Source of the DNA: a virus
Taxonomy: Duplodnaviria > Heunggongvirae > Uroviricota > Caudoviricetes
Reading direction: 5' to 3' (one strand)
Length of the DNA stretch: 13,407 nucleotides
Virus record (IMG/VR): IMGVR_UViG_2537562172_000003
Span: 1-13,407 of that record
Below are positions 1 to 13,407 of the stretch, in pieces (positions within the stretch are counted from its first letter, which is position 1; every line of letters begins with the position of its first letter). The position numbers and the translations under genes are program-made. A model generated the notes under the pieces. It had not been told where the DNA came from. It did not search any database and worked only from the letters and a program-made list of their open reading frames with translations.

Positions 1-1284
1 TTACTTCTTCGCCTCTGCAACCACTTTACTACCCACGCCGCGGTTATTGTATTCCCACATGCGGTTGTAGTTAGTGTCATTCAGATTGCGCTGTATTTCG
101 TCGTTATCATCTACGCTGCCGGTATTACCCGCAAACGGACGATTAGAGATCACCGCATCGGCCCACGGTTTAGCCGTGTTAAAACCTTCGTTGATGGCGC
201 TATCACGGATCACCACCTGACCGTTGGTATTGGCATCAACATCCAGCGAGCGGCCCAGTTGCGCCACACCATCACCGAAAGCATTGAAACGGCTGTTTAC
301 GGCGAGGAAACCGTAGTAAATGTTGGACAGCGTAGCCGGTGCAAACACATACGCTTCTTGCTGAGTACGTGAGTTCACCACGCGGAATTCGGTGTTATCG
401 AACACCACTGCGCCGCGACCAGAAACGATATCCACATCCCCTTCAATGTAGCTGTTGGTCACCAGCGTACGCGGCTGACGATTTGTTTCCAGACGGTTCT
501 GCACACCGCTGTTGGTGACAAAGAAGGTGTTCTGACGACCGAGAATGTTAACGTTGTTAATCTGTACCTGGTCACCATCAGTACGCAGTGCCACCGCCGG
601 ATGGTTACCTGCATCTACGCTATCGCCCAGCGTGTTTTCGATGGTCAGATTTTGCAGTTGCAGGCCATTGTTTTGTGACCAGAAGACCGCAGAGCAGAGA
701 ACACCGATACTGTCGCTGCGTTTGCTCTGGCAGCTATCGTACATATACCACGCTGGTTTACCTGGCATATATTTGCCGCGCGGGTTGACGTCGTGACGCC
801 AGTCGGCAGGGCTCATGCCACCATCAAGGGAAAGCCCAATCTTCACATCAATCGGTTTTTCACCTGTACCGTACAGAGTAATTCCACCCGGAGCGGCAGG
901 GACATATACCGTTCCCTGATACTCACCAGGCATCACGGCAATATACTGGCGCTTGTTGGTACGCTTGATAATTGCCGCATCTACCGCCGCCTGAATCGTG
1001 GTATGCGTTACACCTTGAGTGCCCGCCGGGCCGACAACAAAGTCAGGTTGCGCAGGCAGGGTAATCGGGGAAGGATTCCACGCTGCAGCACCTGGTGTCA
1101 GGGATGCAAAATAGTGTTGAGCATCGAAATTCTGCGCTTCTTTTGCCGACAGAATCGGGCGAGAAGAGGTACCAGGCGCGGTTTGATCAGAAGGACGTTG
1201 ATCGGGCGGGGTTGAGCTACAGGCGGTCAGCGTCACGCCAAAAGCCAATGCCAGCGCCAGACGGGAAACTGAAAATGTGTTCAC
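1..1284 (-). CDS. ybhC: YbhC-type lipoprotein (pectinesterase-like fold; annotated in E. coli as putative acyl-CoA thioesterase); host gene flanking att-lambda
   Basis: Complete 427-aa ORF, TAA stop at 1-3, GTG start at 1282-1284 preceded by GGAG. N-terminus MNTFSVSRLALALAFGVTLTACSS is a lipoprotein signal with lipobox LTAC. Sequence recognised from memory as E. coli YbhC, whose gene neighbours attB-lambda. Confidence 0.85.
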   Translation of the reverse strand: MNTFSVSRLALALAFGVTLTACSSTPPDQRPSDQTAPGTSSRPILSAKEAQNFDAQHYFASLTPGAAAWNPSPITLPAQPDFVVGPAGTQGVTHTTIQAAVDAAIIKRTNKRQYIAVMPGEYQGTVYVPAAPGGITLYGTGEKPIDVKIGLSLDGGMSPADWRHDVNPRGKYMPGKPAWYMYDSCQSKRSDSIGVLCSAVFWSQNNGLQLQNLTIENTLGDSVDAGNHPAVALRTDGDQVQINNVNILGRQNTFFVTNSGVQNRLETNRQPRTLVTNSYIEGDVDIVSGRGAVVFDNTEFRVVNSRTQQEAYVFAPATLSNIYYGFLAVNSRFNAFGDGVAQLGRSLDVDANTNGQVVIRDSAINEGFNTAKPWADAVISNRPFAGNTGSVDDNDEIQRNLNDTNYNRMWEYNNRGVGSKVVAEAKK

Positions 1285-1330
1285 AGGTTGCTCCGGGCTA
1301 TGAAATAGAAAAATGAATCCGTTGAAGCCT

Positions 1331-1422
1331 GCTTTTTTATACTAAGTTGGCATTATAAAAAAGCATTGCTTATCAATTTGTTGCAACGAACAGGTCACTA
1401 TCAGTCAAAATAAAATCATTAT
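1331..1422. other. attL: Lambda-type attL (B-O-P'): 15-bp core plus P' arm
   Basis: Exact lambda core GCTTTTTTATACTAA at 1331-1345. P' arm follows: IHF H'-like TATCAATTTGTTG at 1371-1383, Int arm-type sites AGGTCACTAT (1393-1402), CAGTCAAAAT (1402-1411), AAAATCATTAT (1412-1422) overlapping the int stop codon. Bacterial flank TGAAGCCT precedes the core. Confidence 0.88.
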
Positions 1423-2489
1423 TTGATTTCAATTTTGTCCCACTCCCTGCCTCTGTCATCACGATACTGTGATGCCATGGTGTCCGACTTATGCCCGAGA
1501 AGATGTTGAGCAAACTTATCGCTTATCTGCTTCTCATAGAGTCTTGCAGACAAACTGCGCAACTCGTGAAAGGTAGGCGGATCCCCTTCGAAGGAAAGAC
1601 CTGATGCTTTTCGTGCGCGCATAAAATACCTTGATACTGTGCCGGATGAAAGCGGTTCACGACGAGTAGATGCAATTATGGTTTCTCCGCCAAGAATCTC
1701 TTTGCATTTATCAAGTGTTTCCTTCATTGATATCCCGAGAGCATCAACATGCAATGTTGTTGGGATGGCAATTTTTACGCCTGTTTTGCTTTGCTCGACA
1801 TAAAGATATCCATCTACGATATCAGACCACTTCATTTCGCATAAATCACCAACTCGTTGCCCGGTAACAACAGCCAGTTCCATTGCAAGTCTGAGCCAAC
1901 ATGGTGATGATTCTGCTGCTTGATAAATTTTCAGGTATTCGTCAGCCGTAAGTCTTGATCTCCTTACCTCTGATTTTGCTGCGCGAGTGGCAGCGACAGG
2001 GTTTGTTGTTATATGGCCTTCAGCTATTGCCTCTCGGAATGCATCGCTCAGTGTTGATCTGATTAACTTGGCTGACGCCGCCTTGCCCTCGTCTATGTAT
2101 CCATTGAGCATTGCCGCAATTTCTTTTGTGGTGATGTCTTCAAGTGGAGCATCAGGCAGACCCCTCCTTATTGCTTTAATTTTGCTCATGTAATTTATGA
2201 GTGTCTTCTGCTTGATTCCTCTGCTGGCCAGGATTTTTTCGTAGCGATCAAGCCATGAATGTAACGTAACGGAATTATCACTGTTGATTCTCGCTGTCAG
2301 AGGCTTGTGTTTGTGTCCTGAAAATAACTCAATGTTGGCCTGTATGGCTTCAGTGATTGCGATTCGCCTGTCTCTGCCTAATCCAAACTCTTTACCCGTC
2401 CTTGGGTCCCTGTAGCAGTAATATCCATTGTTTCTTATATAAAGGTTAGGGGGTAAATCCCGGCGCTCATGACTTCGCCTTCTTCCCAT
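1419..2489 (-). CDS. int: Lambda integrase (tyrosine recombinase), 356 aa
   Basis: ORF translation matches lambda Int essentially along its whole length as remembered (MGRRRSHERRDLPPNLYIRNNGYY ... DDRGREWDKIEIK); overlaps xis 3' end as in lambda; adjacent to the P' arm. Confidence 0.96.
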   Translation of the reverse strand: MGRRRSHERRDLPPNLYIRNNGYYCYRDPRTGKEFGLGRDRRIAITEAIQANIELFSGHKHKPLTARINSDNSVTLHSWLDRYEKILASRGIKQKTLINYMSKIKAIRRGLPDAPLEDITTKEIAAMLNGYIDEGKAASAKLIRSTLSDAFREAIAEGHITTNPVAATRAAKSEVRRSRLTADEYLKIYQAAESSPCWLRLAMELAVVTGQRVGDLCEMKWSDIVDGYLYVEQSKTGVKIAIPTTLHVDALGISMKETLDKCKEILGGETIIASTRREPLSSGTVSRYFMRARKASGLSFEGDPPTFHELRSLSARLYEKQISDKFAQHLLGHKSDTMASQYRDDRGREWDKIEIK

Positions 2490-2904: not shown

Positions 2905-2929
2905 TAAAAAAAACTCGCCGTAGCGAGTT
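2905..2929 (-). terminator. Putative intrinsic terminator
   Basis: Minus-strand hairpin AACTCGC-TACG-GCGAGTT (plus 2912-2929) followed by a T7-8 run. Confidence 0.4.
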
Positions 2930-3088
2930 CAGATAAAAGAAATCCCCGCGAGTGCGAGGATAGTTATTCATTGTCGATATTTACATTTATTTCGAATATC
3001 TTTACTGGGTAATCGCCAAAGTCATATATTTTTTATTCTGTTTTATAAGCACTACCAAGTACTGCTTATTACAAATAAGAAAAGGCTG

Positions 3089-3118
3089 AAAAAAATATTT
3101 AAGGCCACAACTGTGGCC
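3089..3118 (-). terminator. Putative intrinsic terminator downstream of the DUF1311-like gene
   Basis: Perfect 6-bp stem GGCCAC/GTGGCC with 4-nt loop (3103-3118) just after the stop at 3129, followed on the minus strand by a T-rich run (plus-strand A-run 3089-3097). Confidence 0.45.
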
Positions 3119-3128
3119 CTAAATTTAC

Positions 3129-3827
3129 TTACGGCACTGCGTTAATCAGATTACAAATACCTCTTTTGGCAGGGTCTGAATTCAACTTCTGAAAATTGGC
3201 GTTCAACATAGCCGTGTGTAAGTGATTCTCAACCTCAAAGAATAGGTCGATTTTGCCCTCTTTGGCTGCCTGTTTCTTCCAAATATTCACTTGGTCATCA
3301 GCAATACGACTAGCGCAAGTGAACAAGAACGAACTGCCTCTAGGAATGGATGTCGTGCTGTAATACTCACCATCTACTTCTACATATTTAGCTCGGAATG
3401 ACTCTAAGGTTAGCTTATTGCCGTTCTTGACCGACTTAGCTTCTGCCTTACTTGTATCTTCCTGCTCTTTAGAATGTTTCTGCGCCGACGTGGGTATGTC
3501 ATTGGCCGCTGTTACGCTGACTGAACTCCCCAAACCTTTGAGGCCATTAATTTGGATAAGATAAGCCAGCTCCAGAGCCTTATTATCAGTGAGTTTTCCA
3601 CGCATATTTACCCACTGACGTTGAACCATTTTTAGGGTGTCTGCGTTCTCTGGGTTTCCTTTGAGGGCACTAGAATAGGCAGAGCTAAGCTGTTCGTCTA
3701 ATTTTGACAGACGTTCGTTCTCGCAGATTTTATGTTCGATTGCTGTCGAAGCCTTTTGGCAGTCAAAGCTGGCTGCAAATGCACCCGGCGATGCCACTAA
3801 CAATGATGCCAGTAGGATATTTTTCAT
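3129..3827 (-). CDS. Secreted protein with an N-terminal DUF1311 (LprI-like lysozyme-inhibitor) type domain, 232 aa; non-lambda cargo
   Basis: ORF 3129-3854; preferred start is ATG at 3825-3827 (MKNILLASLLVASPGAFA, signal peptide with AFA-A cleavage motif) preceded by GGAG. Mature N-terminus SFDCQKASTAIEHKICENERLSKLDEQLSSAYSSAL resembles the conserved Cys-containing DUF1311 motif, assigned from memory. Not a lambda gene. Confidence 0.7.
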   Translation of the reverse strand: MKNILLASLLVASPGAFAASFDCQKASTAIEHKICENERLSKLDEQLSSAYSSALKGNPENADTLKMVQRQWVNMRGKLTDNKALELAYLIQINGLKGLGSSVSVTAANDIPTSAQKHSKEQEDTSKAEAKSVKNGNKLTLESFRAKYVEVDGEYYSTTSIPRGSSFLFTCASRIADDQVNIWKKQAAKEGKIDLFFEVENHLHTAMLNANFQKLNSDPAKRGICNLINAVP

Positions 3828-3957
3828 ATTCACTCCATAAATACAAAAGCGCATTACTATAGCACTTAACCGATCGCTTATCTCGCCCGTTCGTCATTCT
3901 TATCTAACCAGAACATGCGACTGCCACAGCACATGTCGAGGATTGCTGCATGTCCAG

Positions 3958-4371
3958 TCACTGGTTGCCTCCTTTGCGAAGCTGGGCGGCTAACTCATCA
4001 CATATGTGCGTCAAAGAGCAAAGTTTGATTGATGGATGTTCGCGCATCATCTCCACCCCCTGCGCCCGTACTTCAGCCAGGAAAGCATCGGTGGCTGGCA
4101 TATTTCCTGTTGCCTTCATGGCCTCCAAAATAACCAGAACACCATCTCTCCCAATCTCCTCGCAGATAACCTCGGTGCTGTCGCCAACAACATCGCAGAA
4201 TTCCTGAACTGCTTTACGAGCCAGCTCATTCTCCGCCGCCAGCGCCGAAAACTTCTCGTGTGCCAACTTAACAGCTGCATCAGCCTGCTTAATTGACTCA
4301 GTCGCTTTCTGGTGGTCTTCGGCCAGCCCTGCTAAATCAGCCTCCAGTTCGGCTACGGGACCAGCCATCAA
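3958..4371 (-). CDS. Hypothetical 137-aa protein (coiled-coil-rich N-terminus), possibly a remnant or fusion at the substitution junction
   Basis: Longest ORF in this segment and in the same orientation as the operon. Its first codons lie inside the bet remnant in another frame, so the true start is uncertain. No motif recognised. Confidence 0.35.
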   Translation of the reverse strand: MMAGPVAELEADLAGLAEDHQKATESIKQADAAVKLAHEKFSALAAENELARKAVQEFCDVVGDSTEVICEEIGRDGVLVILEAMKATGNMPATDAFLAEVRAQGVEMMREHPSIKLCSLTHICDELAAQLRKGGNQ

Positions 4372-4606
4372 CGCCCACCACCGGAACGATGCCGTTCTGC
4401 TTATCAGGGAAGGCGTAAATTTCTTTCGTCCACGGATTAAGGCCGTACTGGTTGGCGACGATCAACAATGCGATGAACTGCGCATCGCTGGCATCACCTT
4501 TAAATGCCGTCTGGCGAAGAGTGGTGATCAGTTCCTGTGGGTCGACAGAATCCATGCCGACACGTTCAGCCAGCTTCCCAGCCAGCGTTGCGAGTGCTGT
4601 ACTCAT
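4337..4606 (-). pseudogene. bet: Truncated lambda bet (Red-beta): first ~84 codons, then 5 unrelated codons and a stop
   Basis: Translation MSTALATLAGKLAERVGMDSVDPQELITTLRQTAFKGDASDAQFIALLIVANQYGLNPWTKEIYAFPDKQNGIVPVVGVDGWSR matches the lambda Bet N-terminus, then diverges (SRTGG-stop); lambda Bet is 261 aa. exo is absent. Confidence 0.88.
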
Positions 4607-4611
4607 CCGTT

Positions 4612-5028
4612 TTATACCTCTGAATCAATATCAACCTGATGGTGAGCAATGGTTTCAACCATGTACCGGATGTGTTCTGCCATGCGCTCCTGAAACTCAA
4701 CATCGTCATCAAACGCACGGGTAATGGCTTTTTTGCTGGCCCCGTGGCGTTGCAAATGATCGATGCATAGCGATTCAAACAGGTGCTGGGGCAGGCCTTT
4801 TTCCATGTCGTCTGCCAGTTCTGCCTCTTTCTCTTCACGGGCGATCTGCTGGTAGTGACGCGCCCAGCTCTGAGCCTCAAGACGATCCTGAATGTAATAA
4901 GCGTTCATGGCTGAACTCCTGAAATAGCTGTGAAAATATCGTCCGCGAAATGCCGGGCTGATTAGAAAAACAGGGAAGGGGGGTAGTGAATGCTTTTGCT
5001 TGATCTCAGTTTCAGTATTAATATCCAT
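4612..5028 (-). CDS. gam: Lambda Gam (RecBCD inhibitor), 138 aa
   Basis: Translation matches lambda Gam ([15 protein letters not shown]...[10 protein letters not shown]) with a few substitutions relative to my recollection (e.g. SLPPFPV here vs SLTPFPV). Confidence 0.95.
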
Positions 5029-5126
5029 TTTTTATAAGCGTCGACGGCCTCACGAAACATCTTTTCATCGCCAATAAAAGTGGCGATAGTGAATTTAGTC
5101 TGGATAGCCATAAGTGTTTGATCCAT
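4962..5126 (-). CDS. kil: Lambda Kil (FtsZ-inhibiting host-killing protein), here 54 aa (about 47 aa in lambda as I recall)
   Basis: Start [47 protein letters not shown] at 5124-5126, overlapping the cIII 3' end and the gam 5' end as in lambda. The ORF runs 7 codons further (YPPSLFF) than the remembered lambda stop. Confidence 0.7.
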
Positions 5127-5259
5127 TTTTTGGGACTCCTGGCTGATTAAGTATGTCGATAAGGCGTTTCCATCCGTCACGTAATTTACGGGTGATTCGT
5201 TCAAGTAAAGATTCGGAAGGGCAGCCAGCAACAGGCCACCCTGCAATGGCATATTGCAT
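5095..5259 (-). CDS. cIII: Lambda CIII (FtsH/HflB inhibitor), 54 aa
   Basis: Not in the ORF track (under 60 aa). Minus-strand translation from ATG 5257-5259: [54 protein letters not shown], matching lambda CIII; preceded by TAAGGAG. Confidence 0.92.
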   Translation of the reverse strand: MQYAIAGWPVAGCPSESLLERITRKLRDGWKRLIDILNQPGVPKNGSNTYGYPD

Positions 5260-5331
5260 GGTGTGCTCCTTATTTATACATAACGAAAAACGCCTCGAGT
5301 GAAGCGTTATTGGTATGCGGTAACGCCGCGC

Positions 5332-5700
5332 TCAGGCGGCTTTGATAGTCATATCATCTGGATCAAATATTCCTGATGTATCGATATCGGTAATTCTTAT
5401 TCCTTCGCTACCATCCATTGGAGGCCATCCTTCCTGACCATTTCCATCATTCCAGTCGAACTCACACACAACACCATATGCATTTAAGTCGCTTGAAATT
5501 GCTATAAGCAGAGCATGTTGCGCCAGCATGATTAATACAGCATTTAATACAGAGCCGTGTTTATTGAGTCGGTATTCAGAGTCTGACCAGAAATTATTAA
5601 TCTGGTAAAGTTTTTCCTCTGTCATTACGTCATGGTCGATTTCAATTTCTATTGATGCTTTCCAGTCGTAATCAATGATGTATTTTTTGATGTTTGACAT
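5332..5700 (-). CDS. ea10: Lambda Ea10-like early protein, 122 aa
   Basis: 122-aa ORF 72 nt upstream of cIII, the same size and spacing as lambda ea10 as I remember it; SD GAGGA upstream of the ATG. Acidic C-terminus. Confidence 0.7.
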   Translation of the reverse strand: MSNIKKYIIDYDWKASIEIEIDHDVMTEEKLYQINNFWSDSEYRLNKHGSVLNAVLIMLAQHALLIAISSDLNAYGVVCEFDWNDGNGQEGWPPMDGSEGIRITDIDTSGIFDPDDMTIKAA

Positions 5701-5719
5701 CTATTCATATCCTCACAGA

Positions 5720-5746
5720 TAAAAAATCGCCCTCATACTGGAGGGC
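5720..5746 (-). terminator. Putative hairpin/terminator upstream of ea10
   Basis: Minus-strand stem GCCCTC-CAGTAT-GAGGGC (plus 5729-5746) followed by GATTTTTT. Confidence 0.35.
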
Positions 5747-5861
5747 AAAGAAGATTTCCAATAATCAGAACAAGTCGACTCCTGTTTAGTTACGAGCGAC
5801 ATTGCTCCGTGTATTCACTCGTTGGAATGAATACACAGTGCAGTGTTTATTCTGTTGTTTG

Positions 5862-5889
5862 CGTGAAAATGAAACCCGCCTGAGCGGGT
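5862..5889 (-). terminator. Putative intrinsic terminator downstream of the orphan 289-aa gene
   Basis: Minus-strand stem ACCCGC-TCAG-GCGGGT (plus 5874-5889) followed by TTTCATTTT; overlaps the stop codon at 5889-5891. Confidence 0.45.
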
Positions 5890-6758
5890 TATGACCACTT
5901 TTTGTTTGGATTTCGTTGGTGAGCGTGGTTTACAGGATTATTTGATATACCCCATAACTCTGACTCGCTTATCTCTACACGAGAGAAAGACCTGCTTTCT
6001 TTCAGTTCTTTTATAAACCTAGAACCTACGATGACATCTATTGTCCCAGAAAGTTCTTGTAAAAGATCTTTGTTTTTTCTGAGGAAGAAAACATCTTCTT
6101 TATATTTAATTTTTACATAGAATTTATTCTGTATTTTTAATATATCAAAGCATGGCAGATATCTATATCCCTCATGCTTTCGCCACTGCTTAACAATTAT
6201 AACATCTCTTTCATTTACTGCATTAATCAGCCCAAGACCAAGTATAGGTATGAATATTCTATTGTCTGCCGAAAGCGTACAATTATTACCACCAGGCAAA
6301 TATGTATAAATCATGTCGGAATTTTTATACGCATCAACGAATGCACGTAAGAATCGTACATATTTTTGCCATCCGTTTATACCAAATTTACCATATAAGT
6401 ATTCTTTATTTGTTAGAAGAAAACTATTTGTATCAGGAGCCTTATCTACAGACCTGTCGATAAGATCTCCAACTACGTTTACAAAGTCAAAGACAGAGTT
6501 TAATAAGAACAATTGTCTTTCAGTCGGGCGAATTTCAATTATGTAGCCTGGATGAAGACGATATTGCATCTGCTTACGAAGTATGCTGAACGCTTGGGTC
6601 CGGGCATCTGAAAGCAACTTCCTGTCGCCATCGCCGTGAGCATTGTTTCTAATAAAACTGATATAATTTGCTAATTTTTCAGCCTCTTTTTTGTGTTTTT
6701 TTCGCTCTGATGCTGAGTCTATTGGTTTTGGTATGGACTTGTAATCAATTTTCTTCAT
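5889..6758 (-). CDS. Orphan AT-rich protein of unknown function (289 aa from ATG 6758; 293 aa from ATG 6770), in the ral-sieB slot; candidate superinfection-exclusion or abortive-infection factor
   Basis: Uninterrupted 294-codon ORF; visibly AT-rich compared with flanking lambda genes. First ATG (6768-6770) overlaps the N stop codon (ATGA); second ATG (6756-6758) has a well-spaced GAGG SD. Lys-rich N-terminus; no Walker, HTH or catalytic motif recognised. Not a lambda gene. Confidence 0.75.
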   Translation of the reverse strand: MKKIDYKSIPKPIDSASERKKHKKEAEKLANYISFIRNNAHGDGDRKLLSDARTQAFSILRKQMQYRLHPGYIIEIRPTERQLFLLNSVFDFVNVVGDLIDRSVDKAPDTNSFLLTNKEYLYGKFGINGWQKYVRFLRAFVDAYKNSDMIYTYLPGGNNCTLSADNRIFIPILGLGLINAVNERDVIIVKQWRKHEGYRYLPCFDILKIQNKFYVKIKYKEDVFFLRKNKDLLQELSGTIDVIVGSRFIKELKESRSFSRVEISESELWGISNNPVNHAHQRNPNKKWS

Positions 6759-6766
6759 TACGTACC

Positions 6767-7090
6767 TCATGCCAATGGAATGGATTTCCCTTTAACCTTT
6801 TGTCTTCCTTGACAAGTTATACCGAACTCACTTGGCTTGCTATACCAAACTCGATGATTCTTGCGCTCAATACGTTGCAGGTTGCTTTCAATCTGTTCGT
6901 GGTATTCAGCCAGCACCGTAAGGTCTATCGGATTCAGTGCGCTTTCTACTCGTGATTTCGGTTTGCGATTCAGCGAGAGAATAGGGCGGTTAACTGGTTT
7001 TGCGCTTACCCCAACCAACAGGGGATTTGCTGCTTTCCATTGAGCCTGTTTCTCTGCGCGACGTTCGCGGCGGCGTGTTTGTGCATCCAT
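6767..7090 (-). CDS. N: Lambda N antiterminator, 107 aa
   Basis: Translation from MDAQTRRRERRAEKQAQWKAANPLLVGVSAKPVNRPILSLNRKPKSRVESALNPIDLTVLAEYH... matches lambda N (arginine-rich motif at the N-terminus). The track ORF extends 26 codons upstream into the leader. Confidence 0.93.
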   Translation of the reverse strand: MDAQTRRRERRAEKQAQWKAANPLLVGVSAKPVNRPILSLNRKPKSRVESALNPIDLTVLAEYHEQIESNLQRIERKNHRVWYSKPSEFGITCQGRQKVKGKSIPLA

Positions 7091-7248
7091 CTGGATTCTC
7101 TTGTCAGTTAGCTTTGGTGGTGTGTGTGAGTCGTAGTCCTGAACGAAAACACCCCACGATTGGCTCATTTGCAGCTAATCCGGATTCGCACTTCCGGCCA
7201 ATGCTTCGTTTCGTATCACACACCCCAAAGCCTTCTGCTTTGAATGCT

Positions 7249-7280
7249 GCCCTTCTTCAGGGCTTAATTTTTAAGAGCAT
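7249..7280 (-). promoter_or_regulatory. nutL: nutL (boxB hairpin and boxA)
   Basis: Minus-strand reading TGCTCTTAAAAATTAAGCCCTGAAGAAGGGCAGCA: boxB GCCCTGAAGAAGGGC (plus 7249-7263) and boxA-like TGCTCTTA (plus 7271-7278), about 160 nt upstream of the N start as in lambda. Confidence 0.88.
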
Positions 7281-7312
7281 CACCTTCAATGGTGGTCAGT
7301 GCGTCCTGCTGA

Positions 7313-7393
7313 TGGCTTAAAATTACAAGAAAGATTGTATGTTGTAAACAAGAAATATTGTAAAAAAGGGGCATGAAAAACAAACTCCATTGT
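7313..7393 (-). promoter_or_regulatory. pL promoter with phage-434 OL operators
   Basis: Three 14-bp 434-type operators ACAAGAAAGATTGT (7325-7338), ACAAGAAATATTGT (7348-7361), ACAAACTCCATTGT (7380-7393). Minus-strand -35 TTTACA (plus 7343-7348) and -10 TAATTT (plus 7320-7325) with 17-bp spacer; start near 7313 (ATCAGCAGGACG, lambda-like). Confidence 0.75.
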
Positions 7394-7443
7394 TTTTAAA
7401 CGGAAAATAGTTTGTTTTTTGGTTATCGAGATTGAGGTGGGGA

Positions 7444-8799
<1,356 letters not shown>

Positions 8800-8807
8800 G
8801 ACATTCC

Positions 8808-8839
8808 CGCTCTTACACATCCCAGCCCTGAAAAAGGGC
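8808..8839 (+). promoter_or_regulatory. nutR: nutR (boxA and boxB)
   Basis: boxA CGCTCTTA at 8808-8815; boxB hairpin GCCCTGAAAAAGGGC at 8825-8839; followed by the lambda-like cro-cII leader. Confidence 0.88.
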
Positions 8840-8918
8840 ATCAAATTAAACCACACCTATGGTGTATGCATTTATTTGCATACATTCAATCAATTGTTAT
8901 CTAAGGAAATACTTACAT

Positions 8919-9350
8919 ATGGTTCGTGCAAACAAACGCAACGAGGCTCTACGAATCGAGAGTGCGTTGCTTAACAAAATCGCAATGCTTGGAACTGAGA
9001 AGACAGCGGAAGCTGTGGGCGTTGATAAGTCGCAGATCAGCAGGTGGAACCCTGAGACGGTCGCAAGATGGCTTGATGCGATGGCAAACCTTGAGCGACG
9101 AAACGCGCAGTTTAATGAGTTTAAAGCCGAGTGGATGAGCGCGAATGGCAATCCAGGACAATCGCGTAATGGCGGTCAGATATTGGGGTTGGATGTTAAA
9201 AAAGGTGAATCATTGGGGAGTGCCGTTAAGCGGTATATGTCAATGAATACTGACGCAGCGCCAGCACAAGATTCGACACCTTCAGGAGAACCACGGTATC
9301 AGGTTGGATCATATACCTCAAAATCAGGCATTCAATTTACGGTGGAATGA
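8919..9350 (+). pseudogene. cII: Truncated cII: codons 1-43 fused in frame to ~100 codons from the 3' end of a late (gp20-like ejection protein?) gene
   Basis: MVRANKRNEALRIESALLNKIAMLGTEKTAEAVGVDKSQISRW matches lambda CII residues 1-43; after about 9047 the sequence is unrelated to CII (lambda CII is 97 aa). The stop overlaps the start of the gp16-like gene, which suggests the tail of the upstream gene in a P22-like late operon. Confidence 0.75.
8928..8941 (-). promoter_or_regulatory. CII-binding site of pRE (TTGC-N6-TTGC)
   Basis: Minus-strand TTGCGTTTGTTTGC inside the first codons of cII, as in lambda pRE. Confidence 0.5.
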
Positions 9351-11191
9351 TGAAAGTAACTGCAAACGGTAAGACATTTACCTTCCCTGATGGTACGAGC
9401 ACGGAAGATATTGGCACCGCCATTGATGAGTATTTTGCTGGTCAGGCTGTTCAGCAACAAACAGTTAATCAGGCCAATAATGCACCAACACGGGAAGAAC
9501 CATCATTAATGCAACAAGCTGGCGATTGGCTCACTGGTGGTCAAAGTGCAGGGCAAATTGCAGAACAGGCTGGTCGTGGTCTGGTAAACATACCATTTGA
9601 CGTATTGCAGGGTGGCGCAAGTCTGATTAATGCAATCAGTCAGGGGCTTGGTGGGCCAAAAGTATTGGATGATGTCTATCGTCCAGTCGATCGACCGACA
9701 GACCCTTATGCGCAAGCTGGAGAAACAATTGGCGGGTATTTAGTTCCAGGAGTTGGAACGGCAGGAAGCATGGCTATTGGATCACTGGCAGAGGCCGCAA
9801 ATCAGAAAGGCGATTTCGCACAAAATGCAGCTAAAAATGCCGGAGTTAACCTTGTCGCTCAGGGTGTTCTTTCCGCAGCAGCAAAGGGAATAGGGCGTGG
9901 AATAACGGCTATAAAAGGTGATATTGCGCCAGAAGTGGCGAAGAAAATTGCCACATCAGAATCGATGGGCGTGACACCAATGACATCTGATGTTATCCCG
10001 CCGAAAAATGCTTTCACTCGCGGCCTTACTCAGGATTCCGAGGGGGCTTTGCTCGGGACAGGCTCAAAGCGAGCGGAGCAATATGCAACGCGTAGTAAGC
10101 TGGTAAGTAATTATTTTGACCGTTTTGGTGAGTACAACCCGGATGATGTGGTGAAATCTCTGACCACCACGTTAAGGGGGCGGAAGGATGCCGCTGGCGC
10201 TGTTATCAATGACGTCACCAATAAAATGGGTAATGCCGCAGTTGATACCACAAATACCATGAATGCTCTGAATACAGCGATCGCAAGACAGGAACGGCTT
10301 GGGACGTCTGCTAATCAAAGCCTGCTTACATCCTTGCGTAACCTACGTGAAGAATTAGCAAACCCTGCAACTGATTTGGATGTTACGTTTGATCTCTTGC
10401 GTCAGCATAGAACGGCATTTAGATCTAATGTTCAGGGAGATGCTATGGTCTTCCCCAACCAGGCAAAAGCAGCTACCAATATGGTAGAGAATGCAATGTC
10501 AAAAGACCTTCGTAACGCAGTTGCTAAAAACCTCGGTGCTTCAGACGCAGCAAAATACCTTAAAGCAAATTCCGATTATGCAAACGTTTATAATAAGGTG
10601 CTTAATAAAAACATTGCTAACAAGCTCAACAAGGCAAGCAGTGAAGCCAGTCCTGAACTTATAAATACCGTTGTATTAAGCAGAAAACCATCTGACGTGA
10701 AACGAATTTGGAGCGCATTGGATGATAAAGGGAAAGATGCTATGCGTGCAGCTTACGTCAGCAAAATAGCGGAAAAGGCCGGTGACTCTCCAGCCAAGTT
10801 CATCACTGAAGTTAATAAGCTGAAATCTCAGTCAGGTGGTGAAATTTACAACACTATTTTTTCTGGAAAGCACATGAAAGAGCTTGATGCTCTTCATGAA
10901 GTTCTACAGCAAACAGCAAGGTCAGACACCGCAAATGTAGTAACTCAGACGGGGCAATCGCAAGCCAACAGGATAAGGACGATTGGCGCAACTGCGACTC
11001 TTGGCGTATCAATGGGGATTGAGGCTGGTTTCGGTGCAATGATGCGCTTGTATGAGTCCAAAGTAGCAAGGAATGCTCTCTTACGTCTGGCAAACACTAA
11101 AGCTGGAACGCCGGCTTATGAAAGAGCGCTAAATAATGCTGCAAATGCGATACGCCCTATACTTGCAAGCCAGATTACAGCAGAACAATAG
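9347..11191 (+). CDS. P22 gp16-like ejection (DNA-transfer) protein, 614 aa
   Basis: Large Ala/Gly/Gln-rich protein; size and position (immediately before the tailspike) fit gp16-type injection proteins; start ATGATG overlaps the upstream stop (alternative start 9350). Confidence 0.65.
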
Positions 11192-11242
11192 ATAAATAAT
11201 TAATTAAGCACATAACTACTGACAGATAACCAACGCAACGAC

Positions 11243-11264
11243 CCAGCTCCGGCTGGTTTTTTTA
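11243..11264 (+). terminator. Putative intrinsic terminator after the ejection-protein gene
   Basis: Hairpin CCAGC-TCCG-GCTGG (11243-11256) followed by T7 (11257-11263). Confidence 0.5.
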
Positions 11265-11321
11265 TTCCAAAAATTCACCGTAGCCACGCTGCGGCGATTC
11301 CTTGCATCTGGAGCAAATTAA

Positions 11322-13407
11322 ATGACAGACATTACAGCCAATGTGATCGTATCGATGCCTTCGCAACTCTTCACTATGGCGCGTTCTTTTAAAGCCGTAG
11401 CCAATGGCAAAATTTATATCGGTAAAATTGACACTGACCCGGTAAATCCTGAAAACCAGATTCAGGTTTATGTAGAAAACGAAGATGGTTCTCATGTTCC
11501 TGTTTCGCAACCAATCATCATTAACGCTGCTGGATATCCGGTATACAACGGACAGATTGTCAAATTCGTTACTATACAGGGCCATTCTATGGCTGTTTAT
11601 GATGCGTACGGTTCTCAGCAGTTCTATTTTCCTAATGTCCTGAAGTATGACCCTGACCAATTAAGGCAAGAATTAGCTTCTGACAGAGGAGCAACATTAT
11701 CATTAAGTCAGATAGCTACTTCTTACGGTCTTGATTTCTCGTTAGGCGGTGTATGGCAGGAGGGGGCGTTATCTTATGTTGATAACTGGTGGTGGTATAA
11801 TAATAAAATCTACACCGGTGGTAGCGGAAATCTGCCATCTATCCCATCAGCACCGTGGTATCCAATTCGCCCGGGATACAATTTTAAACTTAACAGACTT
11901 TATTACCTCCAAGGGTGTGAGCGATATTCTTGACGTAGTGGACTGGCAATGGGCTTTTGATAGCGCAAAATTAAACGCCAAAAACACAACAGTTATAGAT
12001 ATGGACGGTCGTGAATACGCGGTTACCGGAGGCGGTTACGTTATGCATCAGGGAGTTAGTCTGAGAGGTGCTCGCGATGCTATGCAAAACCCTTCTGTCG
12101 ATGGTTTGAGTATTGTTTATATTAACAAGACACCTTCAGCCTCTGATGTCATTTTTATTCTACGCGGCGGAAACTTGCTTGAAGACTTTGGCGTCTACTA
12201 TGCTCAACAAACATATGCGGCGCTATCTGCCATGGTTGACGTCGGAATTCTGTTTAAAAAGCTACCAGGAACTGGTGGGACAGATGCTATAAATACAAAA
12301 GGCTGCATAGTTAAAGGGGTAAGCGCCTGCGGTGTGAGTAAGTTTTACTCCGGTTCTTATGCAGATAACGCGCCTGGTGAGTACGACGATGTTAGTCGAG
12401 TCGCTGTTACACCTACACCTTATGGGCCATCGTTTAGGCTTGGAATTAGCACAGACTTACTTCGATACCAAACTATTCATATAAACGCCAATGTCGTCAG
12501 TGCGTACAGAGCAAAGTACGGTGTTGACATTTCACCTCGTGCGCTACCATCAAGCTATACATCTTGCGTGGGATTTCTTGTTGAACGCGCGGATGGATGT
12601 ACGATTCACGACATTCTTACTTATGGTGTCCCGTATCCTGTCGTACTGGGCGCTGTTGGCGCTACCGGAGGGACTCATGGGTGCAGTGTCAATTTATCTC
12701 AATGCGCATTCGATGCAACGCAAACACCTGTCTACATAAACTGCCCGACAGGTGCGTTTGGTGTTCAACTTTCAAACTGTCAGGTTGTATTCGACGAGAA
12801 ATTCGGAGATTCTAACGGGCAATTAATATACTTAGGATCCGCGGCAAGCAATCATCAAGTCTCGCTTTCTAATATTAAAGTGCAAATGACAGCCAATTTT
12901 AGCTACCGACCTGTTCGCGCTGTTTCTGAGAGTAAACAAAACAGGATAATGTTTAGTGATTGCGCGTTAACAGGTAGCGCTAATAACCTTGATGAAGGAA
13001 CTGGCAACCGTATAAGTTTAATCCAAAGTACAAGGAATTTAGGTAACCTAAACTTAATGACCAATCTAACGCCGGAGAGTTCGTTGGTTTCAAGTATGGG
13101 GGAGCTCAATACTATTGTTAGACATTCAGTTAGTGTCACTGTTCAACAAGGAGCAACATTTGCGAACATCTCAGTTACATACCCTTACTCAGGATTTATA
13201 TCGGCACCTAATGTCAAGACAGAAATAACATCGGTTAGTATTTCTGGTCAAAGTGATGACACGATGTACACATCAAGGGCGTATGGCAGAAGTCAATCAG
13301 GGTGCGTCATCAGAGTGAACTTGTCGAAGGCTGCAGTGGCAACTGGTGCACTGACAGTAGATCTATACCTGATTGGAACAGTAAGGGGGGAACTAACATC
13401 TGTGTAG
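11322..13407 (+). CDS. P22/HK620-type tailspike: conserved N-terminal head-binding domain plus divergent receptor-binding domain; reading frame shifts +1 in the 11749-11933 overlap
   Basis: N-terminus [113 protein letters not shown] matches tailspike head-binding domains; SD GGAG upstream. The 11322-11933 ORF stops and the protein continues in the +1 frame (11749-13407, TAG at 13405-13407). Confidence 0.75.

Follow-up and report, generated by a model that had tools for sequence, protein, structure and literature searches.

Has the tailspike gene at this locus been broken by mutation, misread during sequencing or divided into two genes? In the window, i.e. the whole 13,407-nucleotide stretch of DNA that was analysed, a first open reading frame (ORF1, 203 codons at 11322-11933) ends early, and a second one (ORF2), open from 11749 to a stop codon at 13405-13407, runs on in the +1 frame relative to it, since (11749-11322) mod 3 = 1. 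The original prediction had located such a split of a tailspike frame within 11749-11933, exactly where inspection of the ORFs of the window finds it. It had offered three readings: an inactivating frameshift in a decaying prophage, a sequencing error in a homopolymer and, as the least likely, a two-gene arrangement. The features on which the answer depends are listed in Table 1.

Table 1. Features of the tailspike locus and its surroundings (window coordinates unless a contig locus is named).
Feature	Position	Strand	Remarks
cII'-fusion ORF, 143 aa, spanning the deletion junction at ~9048/9049	8919..9350	+	fusion of a lambda-like early region with the last part of a P22-like late region
P22 gp16-type DNA-transfer (ejection) protein gene	9347..11191	+	PF26808, phrog_770; only other virion gene left
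Terminator-like hairpin with T-run	11243..11266	+	between gp16 and tailspike start
Truncated 5' part of the tailspike gene	11322..11933	+	186 native codons, 17 out-of-frame codons, stop 11931-11933
Head-binding domain, codons 1-113	11322-11660	+	PF09008
Conserved neck module, ~70 aa	between head-binding domain and lesion	+	part of the native codons of ORF1
Both frames open	11749..11933	+	+1 translation 5' of 11884 is non-native protein
Lesion AATTTT	11880..11885	+	same 5 bp duplicated as AAATT around the IS2-like insertion in nearest relatives
Tailspike remainder, +1 frame, L188-V694 plus stop	11884..13407	+	orphan receptor-binding module
IS2-like insertion in a further contig locus of the nearest relatives	L014 5540-5623		window equivalent 11880-11885

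One tailspike gene interrupted by a net +1 lesion

A megablast search of the 2086-nt tailspike region against complete E. coli genomes returned four records that are 99.9% identical over the whole 2086 nt, the match being 2085 nt long in each. The annotation gives the matching 2085-nt locus one CDS for a 694-aa 'phage head-binding domain-containing protein'; ETEC4073, ETEC1706 and 2018-01-1CC all carry it in this form. Compared with the four complete-genome relatives, the window has its frame broken at codon 186/187 and lacks the continuous ORF of a P22-like tailspike. The first 186 residues of ORF1 agree with the intact protein at 185 positions (V80 is A in the single relative compared), the native sequence extending through Y186 before 17 out-of-frame residues. 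The +1 frame supplies native L188-V694, 507 aa identical to the intact protein, and K187 alone is lost. Because ORF1 and the +1 frame both match one intact 694-aa protein, the split is not a product of chance.

Alignment of both frames to related tailspikes, which the original prediction had proposed as a way of pinpointing the indel, places it at 11880-11885. There the AAATT of the relatives reads AATTTT in the window, a net gain of one nucleotide in which A is replaced by TT at 11882-11883. This is the sole difference within the overlap of the two ORFs (ACAAATTAAAC in the relatives versus ACAATTTTAAAC in the window), and the longer alignment reads GGGATACAAATTAAAC in the relatives versus GGGATACAATTTTAAAC in the window. 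The two homopolymers in which an indel had been suspected, GGGGG at 11763-11767 and CCCGGG at 11872-11877, are both unchanged in intact relatives and are thereby cleared.

The 90%-identity cluster of the intact protein comprises 64 members, and full-length or site-spanning ones among them were examined. Every examined member that spans the site reads ...PGYKLNLTDF... in a single frame. The cluster contains forms of 694/695 aa with a P22-type N-terminus and forms of 793/794 aa in which the same receptor-binding module follows a different N-terminus, which we take to be epsilon15-like. With a continuous protein encoded in every close relative, a pair of genes is not the rule here, and the suggestion of a two-gene arrangement falls. 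On the evidence of these alignments, the window copy is best classed as a pseudogene of the P22-like tailspike family.

The window is 100% identical over 2919-13407 to contig AFEA01000006.1 (GCA_000225225.2) of E. coli S1191. Against ETEC4073 it shows four differences over 13.4 kb, namely SNPs at 2769 and 12924, the length of a poly-C tract at 8490-8497, and the lesion. SNP 2769 was considered as a phylogenetic marker and proved useless, the window allele being the common lambda-type one (>21,000 index blocks).

In a collection of 15 billion proteins, the 203-aa product of ORF1 is absent, as are the 552-, 543-, 542- and 529-aa versions of ORF2, and a 192-aa product and the 496-aa version come from S1191 only. 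The 454-aa version also occurs in the NCTC-type record GCA_900450005.1 and in two Logan contigs, where it is due to an insertion sequence (IS) in GCA_900450005.1 or to contigs that start at 11928, and not to the frameshift. A 31-mer across the lesion had no match in metagenome contigs or in contigs of species-representative genomes. In these protein and contig k-mer searches, the AATTTT allele is known from one assembly only, that of S1191, and a second S1191 assembly did not turn up. The contig starts at 11928 (loci L008 and L009) were also considered as a second IS junction; this was ruled out by the absence of IS sequence there, and a k-mer branch at the shared N-terminal tailspike module of ~645 nt would explain them better.

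A relic gene in a composite prophage remnant

The RefSeq annotation of ETEC4073 runs from ybhC through a lambda-type int, xis, a truncated recT, gam, kil, cIII, N, a gene for a CI-like repressor and cro to a truncated cII. This is followed directly by the gp16-type DNA-transfer gene, the tailspike gene, a gene for a 446-aa membrane protein and a second integrase gene, intS. In the window, matches to lambda-like prophages stop at 9049 and matches to full P22-like prophages start at 9048, and the cII'-fusion ORF across this junction marks the prophage as a remnant. The tailspike gene lies downstream of the ejection-protein gene, as in a P22-like late region. In complete prophages that share this gp16 and this tailspike, the upstream side is occupied by gp7, gp20 and the remaining genes; between cII' and gp16 in the window there are no head, portal, terminase, tail-needle, tail-assembly or lysis genes. 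An element without head, portal, terminase, tail-needle and lysis genes cannot make particles, and its tailspike is therefore a relic whatever its frame. With no virion to serve, the lesion amounts to neutral decay.

The inactivating frameshift in a decaying prophage, as originally proposed, is thus borne out in the form of one tailspike gene with a net +1 lesion inside a prophage remnant. The prophage remnant that holds this tailspike pseudogene is defective and composite, and in E. coli S1191 it occupies the lambda attachment site on the ybhC side. The same fusion of lambda-like and P22-like parts is shared by at least 24 contigs in the collection.

Several further observations concern the remnant as a whole. 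The element sits between ybhC and ybhB/bioA, which is the classical lambda attachment region (window 1-2489 and 3479-5480 of L008). Its two integrase genes, the lambda-type int beside ybhC and intS towards the other end, suggest that two prophage remnants lie here, fused or in tandem. The lambda cIII thermoregulator element (Rfam RF01804) was detected at the start of the cIII gene (5214-5272, minus strand, 88.5 bits) and is consistent with a left arm of lambda type. In ETEC4090-type genomes (loci L004, L007, L019 and L023), the tailspike is cut at 12542 by a deletion that extends from 12543 into intS and leaves a 408-aa product; this allele is an independent decay of the same tailspike. The next gene beyond the tailspike, which encodes 446 aa in relatives, gives a weak match to Wzy_C and none in PHROGs.

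Modular structure of the tailspike

The claim that 11322-11933 encodes the conserved N-terminal domain agrees with the Pfam search, in which residues 1-113 of ORF1 match PF09008 (Head_binding) with E=7.1e-67. Among PDB sequences, the N-terminal domain matches 7sg7 (Sf6 gp14; E=2.5e-65 over residues 1-122) and the P22 entries 2xc1/1lkt, with E-values ranging from 1e-46 to 1e-65. The head-binding domain is the one found at the N-terminus of P22-like podovirus tailspikes such as P22 gp9, Sf6 gp14, HK620 gp9 and the endosialidase tailspike of CUS-3. At the DNA level, the first ~350 nt of the gene are 87-95% identical to HZ41, CUS-3, HK620 and Sf6. The gene order is likewise that of P22-like systems, with the tailspike placed directly after the gp16-type gene and followed by a putative serotype-conversion gene and an integrase.

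Unlike P22-like tailspikes, the window gene is frameshifted, belongs to a prophage remnant and has a receptor-binding part without similarity to solved tailspikes. This part (residues ~190-694), for which the trimeric beta-helix receptor-binding/depolymerase fold of the family would be expected, had no match in Pfam, PHROGs or PDB sequences and no tblastn match among 50,697 phage records, and single-sequence AlphaFold2 produced an unusable model with a mean pLDDT of 36. The gene is a mosaic: 11684-13407 recurs (98.4%) in strain VG48B2 behind a different N-terminus, presumably epsilon15-like, and 11322-11966 recurs (92.7%) ahead of other receptor-binding domains. The frameshift is located in the shared neck module. 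The receptor-binding module is an uncharacterised orphan; it has been seen in E. coli prophages only and has been swapped at about 11684 between N-termini of the P22 and epsilon15 types.

An IS2-like element at the lesion site in the nearest relatives

Searches seeded with the two neighbouring proteins, gp16 and the cII' fusion, led to the nearest relatives of S1191. In the NCTC-type genome GCA_900450005.1 (UGEZ01000005.1, 4.77 Mb; source of STM04815.1), the tailspike gene contains an IS3-family element of 1331 bp, at 8967-10297 of the extracted locus (L021), with the termini TGGATTTGCC... and ...GGCCAGTCTA. We take these termini to be IS2-like; the RefSeq annotation says only 'IS3 family transposase'. 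The element is placed as ...GGGATACAAATT/IS/AAATTAAAC... with a 5-bp target duplication, AAATT (with a longer right flank, ...GGGATACAAATT/IS/AAATTAAACTT...). The left junction, ...ACAAATT/TGGATTTGCC..., is present in GCA_900450005.1 and in at least 7 short-read (Logan) assemblies including ERR4899778, and the right junction, ...CCAGTCTA/AAATTAAAC, was seen in GCA_900450005.1. The closest relatives thus carry the same IS at the very nucleotide position of the lesion.

Once the IS and one copy of the duplication are removed, GCA_900450005.1 and S1191 differ over ~11 kb only at the poly-C tract and at the lesion site. The lesion is confined to the 5-bp target duplication (AATTTT in the window versus AAATT) and its flanks are identical. 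On either side of the IS the relatives have wild-type sequence, which shows that the S1191 allele was not the target of the insertion. The chance of an unrelated event falling within these 6 nt of the 2086-nt gene is ~0.3%, and the position of the lesion inside the target duplication favours a real, IS-related lesion over a chance miscall in a homopolymer.

In S1191, an 89-bp deletion shortens the product of the gene that follows the tailspike, just beyond the 3' end of the window, from 446 to 383 aa (loci L010, 5559-6710, and L020, 10557-11708). This deletion was scored against the intact 446-aa allele of GCA_001005685.1, and ETEC4073 also has an intact allele. The 383-aa truncation is shared by S1191 and GCA_900450005.1 and is both a further decay and a shared derived character. 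The C8 allele of the poly-C tract is common to S1191 and the IS-bearing ERR4899778. Both shared features are weak hints of an IS-bearing ancestry of S1191, which could instead be basal to the IS-bearing isolates.

Origin of the lesion

With IS-bearing sisters and untouched-site relatives on either side of S1191, we consider it rather probable that the lesion is the scar of an imprecise loss of the IS2-like (IS3-family) element. An IS2-like element with its AAATT duplication would have sat at exactly 11880-11885 in the immediate ancestor of S1191, and its imprecise loss would have left the +1 scar AATTTT. Possible routes of loss are error-prone end joining assisted by transposase and IEE, or replication slippage. 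The change from AAATT to AATTTT shifts the frame after codon 186, so that translation from the native start gives only the head-binding domain, the neck module and 17 out-of-frame residues. The receptor-binding part, 507 residues long, is left without a start and without the domain for attachment to the particle.

Such a history can be compared with the insertion and excision of IS3-family elements (IS2, IS629, IS600) in pathogenic E. coli. The relatives show the 1331-bp element and its 5-bp duplication at the site, and the window is without the IS and has a small lesion confined to the duplicated 5 bp. Excision of IS3-family elements is promoted by IEE together with the transposase, and IEE, an error-prone primase-polymerase capable of microhomology end joining and primer dislocation, is reported to be abundant in ETEC genomes (PMC9943667; bioRxiv 10.1101/2023.06.07.543989). 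Most published excisions promoted by IEE are precise or come with deletions in the flanks, and a +1/substitution scar like AATTTT was not found in this literature on IEE excision (PMC9943667; bioRxiv 10.1101/2023.06.07.543989). The simple products expected at the site are AAATT (precise excision), AAATTT or AAAATT (a terminal base of the IS kept) and a gain of 5 bp (both duplications kept). Derivations of AATTTT by simple retention or slippage from the duplication and the IS termini were tried, and none was exact. As AATTTT is not among the simple products, at least one extra substitution must be assumed for an IS scar.

A second explanation, a sequencing or consensus error, appears doubtful, with a probability well below that of an IS scar; the true S1191 sequence would then be AAATT, in a continuous ORF of 694 codons that would still be a functionless relic. 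E. coli S1191 (O139:H1, stx2e, from pig oedema disease) was sequenced with 454 Titanium FLX paired-end reads only and assembled with Celera 6.0 (AFEA00000000; PMC3491183). Because the source is a 454-only draft, the sequencing error considered in the original prediction stays a live alternative, though not at the homopolymers named there. The lesion resembles 454 homopolymer errors in its pyrosequencing-only source and in the altered lengths of two adjacent runs (A3 to A2 and T2 to T4), and its allele is unique to a single assembly. However, 454 consensus errors concentrate in long homopolymers and usually add or remove one unit in a single run. The S1191 runs are short (2-3 nt) and two change together, one of them by two units, so that an undercall of A and a two-unit overcall of T would both be needed. 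Nothing, moreover, would draw such an error into the target duplication that the IS has in the sister isolates (~0.3% per gene).

The quality of the draft around the lesion can be gauged from the poly-C tract, which is the only other difference over 2919-13407 and the other one of indel type. Its C8 allele is reproduced in the short-read Logan contigs ERR4899778 and SRR10947474, so C8 is not a 454 error, and the local accuracy of the 454 draft speaks against a miscall at the lesion. The tract varies between C6, C7 and C8 among otherwise identical loci. It is located immediately past the start of the gene for the CI-like repressor (7845-8477, minus strand) and upstream of a cro-like gene (~8584-8799, plus strand); in ETEC1706, which has C6, the CI-like repressor is annotated as a shorter protein.

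A real spontaneous mutation, independent of any IS, seems unlikely. It would require that an A/T-rich and locally palindromic site, CAAATTAAAC, was struck twice, by A to TT in S1191 and by IS2 in the relatives. The gene is under no selection in the remnant and has decayed otherwise in other lineages, and the wild-type flanks of the IS, which did not insert into the S1191 allele, also fit two separate events. Against this, the two events would have to fall within 6 nt of each other in lineages without any other substitution over ~11 kb.

An IS-linked assembly artefact is very improbable. All nearest relatives of S1191 have the IS at this site, and S1191 could in principle carry the element too, or be a mixed population, with the flanks misjoined in the draft. 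Overlap-layout assemblers, however, break at multicopy IS or include them and do not skip them, and the junction is not a plain concatenation of the flanks, which would give a gain of 5 bp.

The least credible reading is a functional one, by programmed +1 frameshifting or by two genes for a head-binding adaptor and a separate receptor-binding protein: the 185-nt overlap of the frames and the internal +1-frame starts (GTG at 11917, and ATG at 12043 with GGAGG 9 nt upstream) would suit it, but relatives 99.9% identical keep one frame, none of those examined is split and the element lacks virion genes with which either product could act. Inspection of the site AAT TTT AAA CTT AAC revealed no shift-prone motif (such as CUU UGA C with an upstream SD sequence, or a hungry or stop codon). 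In AAT TTT AAA CTT there is no stop and no rare codon, and transcriptional slippage would need longer runs of A and T. The split is not conserved among the homologues, in any examined relative that spans the site, and programmed frameshifting was rejected on both grounds, conservation and motif. The SD-like AGGAGGGGG (11759-11767) is equally present in unsplit relatives. Together with the +1-frame ATG at 11776, 8 nt downstream, it forms a start-like arrangement (11759-11779) that is identical in those relatives and whose 543-aa product is unrecorded; it is probably a chance match.

Conclusions

The split tailspike is an ordinary pseudogene, frameshifted and located in a prophage remnant, or, with lower probability, an error of the draft assembly. 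As one more decayed gene in such a remnant it carries little biological weight. The annotation should read 'tailspike pseudogene, frameshifted' and not two hypothetical proteins (EGX19900.1 and EGX19901.1/WP_001280111.1). The locus provides a worked case in which a frameshift in a draft genome was placed to the nucleotide and its likely cause assigned with the help of sister assemblies. The mildly interesting point is the coincidence of the lesion with an IS2 target site. If confirmed, the scar would be a natural example of imprecise excision of an IS3-family element and, should this reading be true, an instance from the field of error-prone IS excision, possibly mediated by IEE, in a porcine STEC/ETEC lineage.
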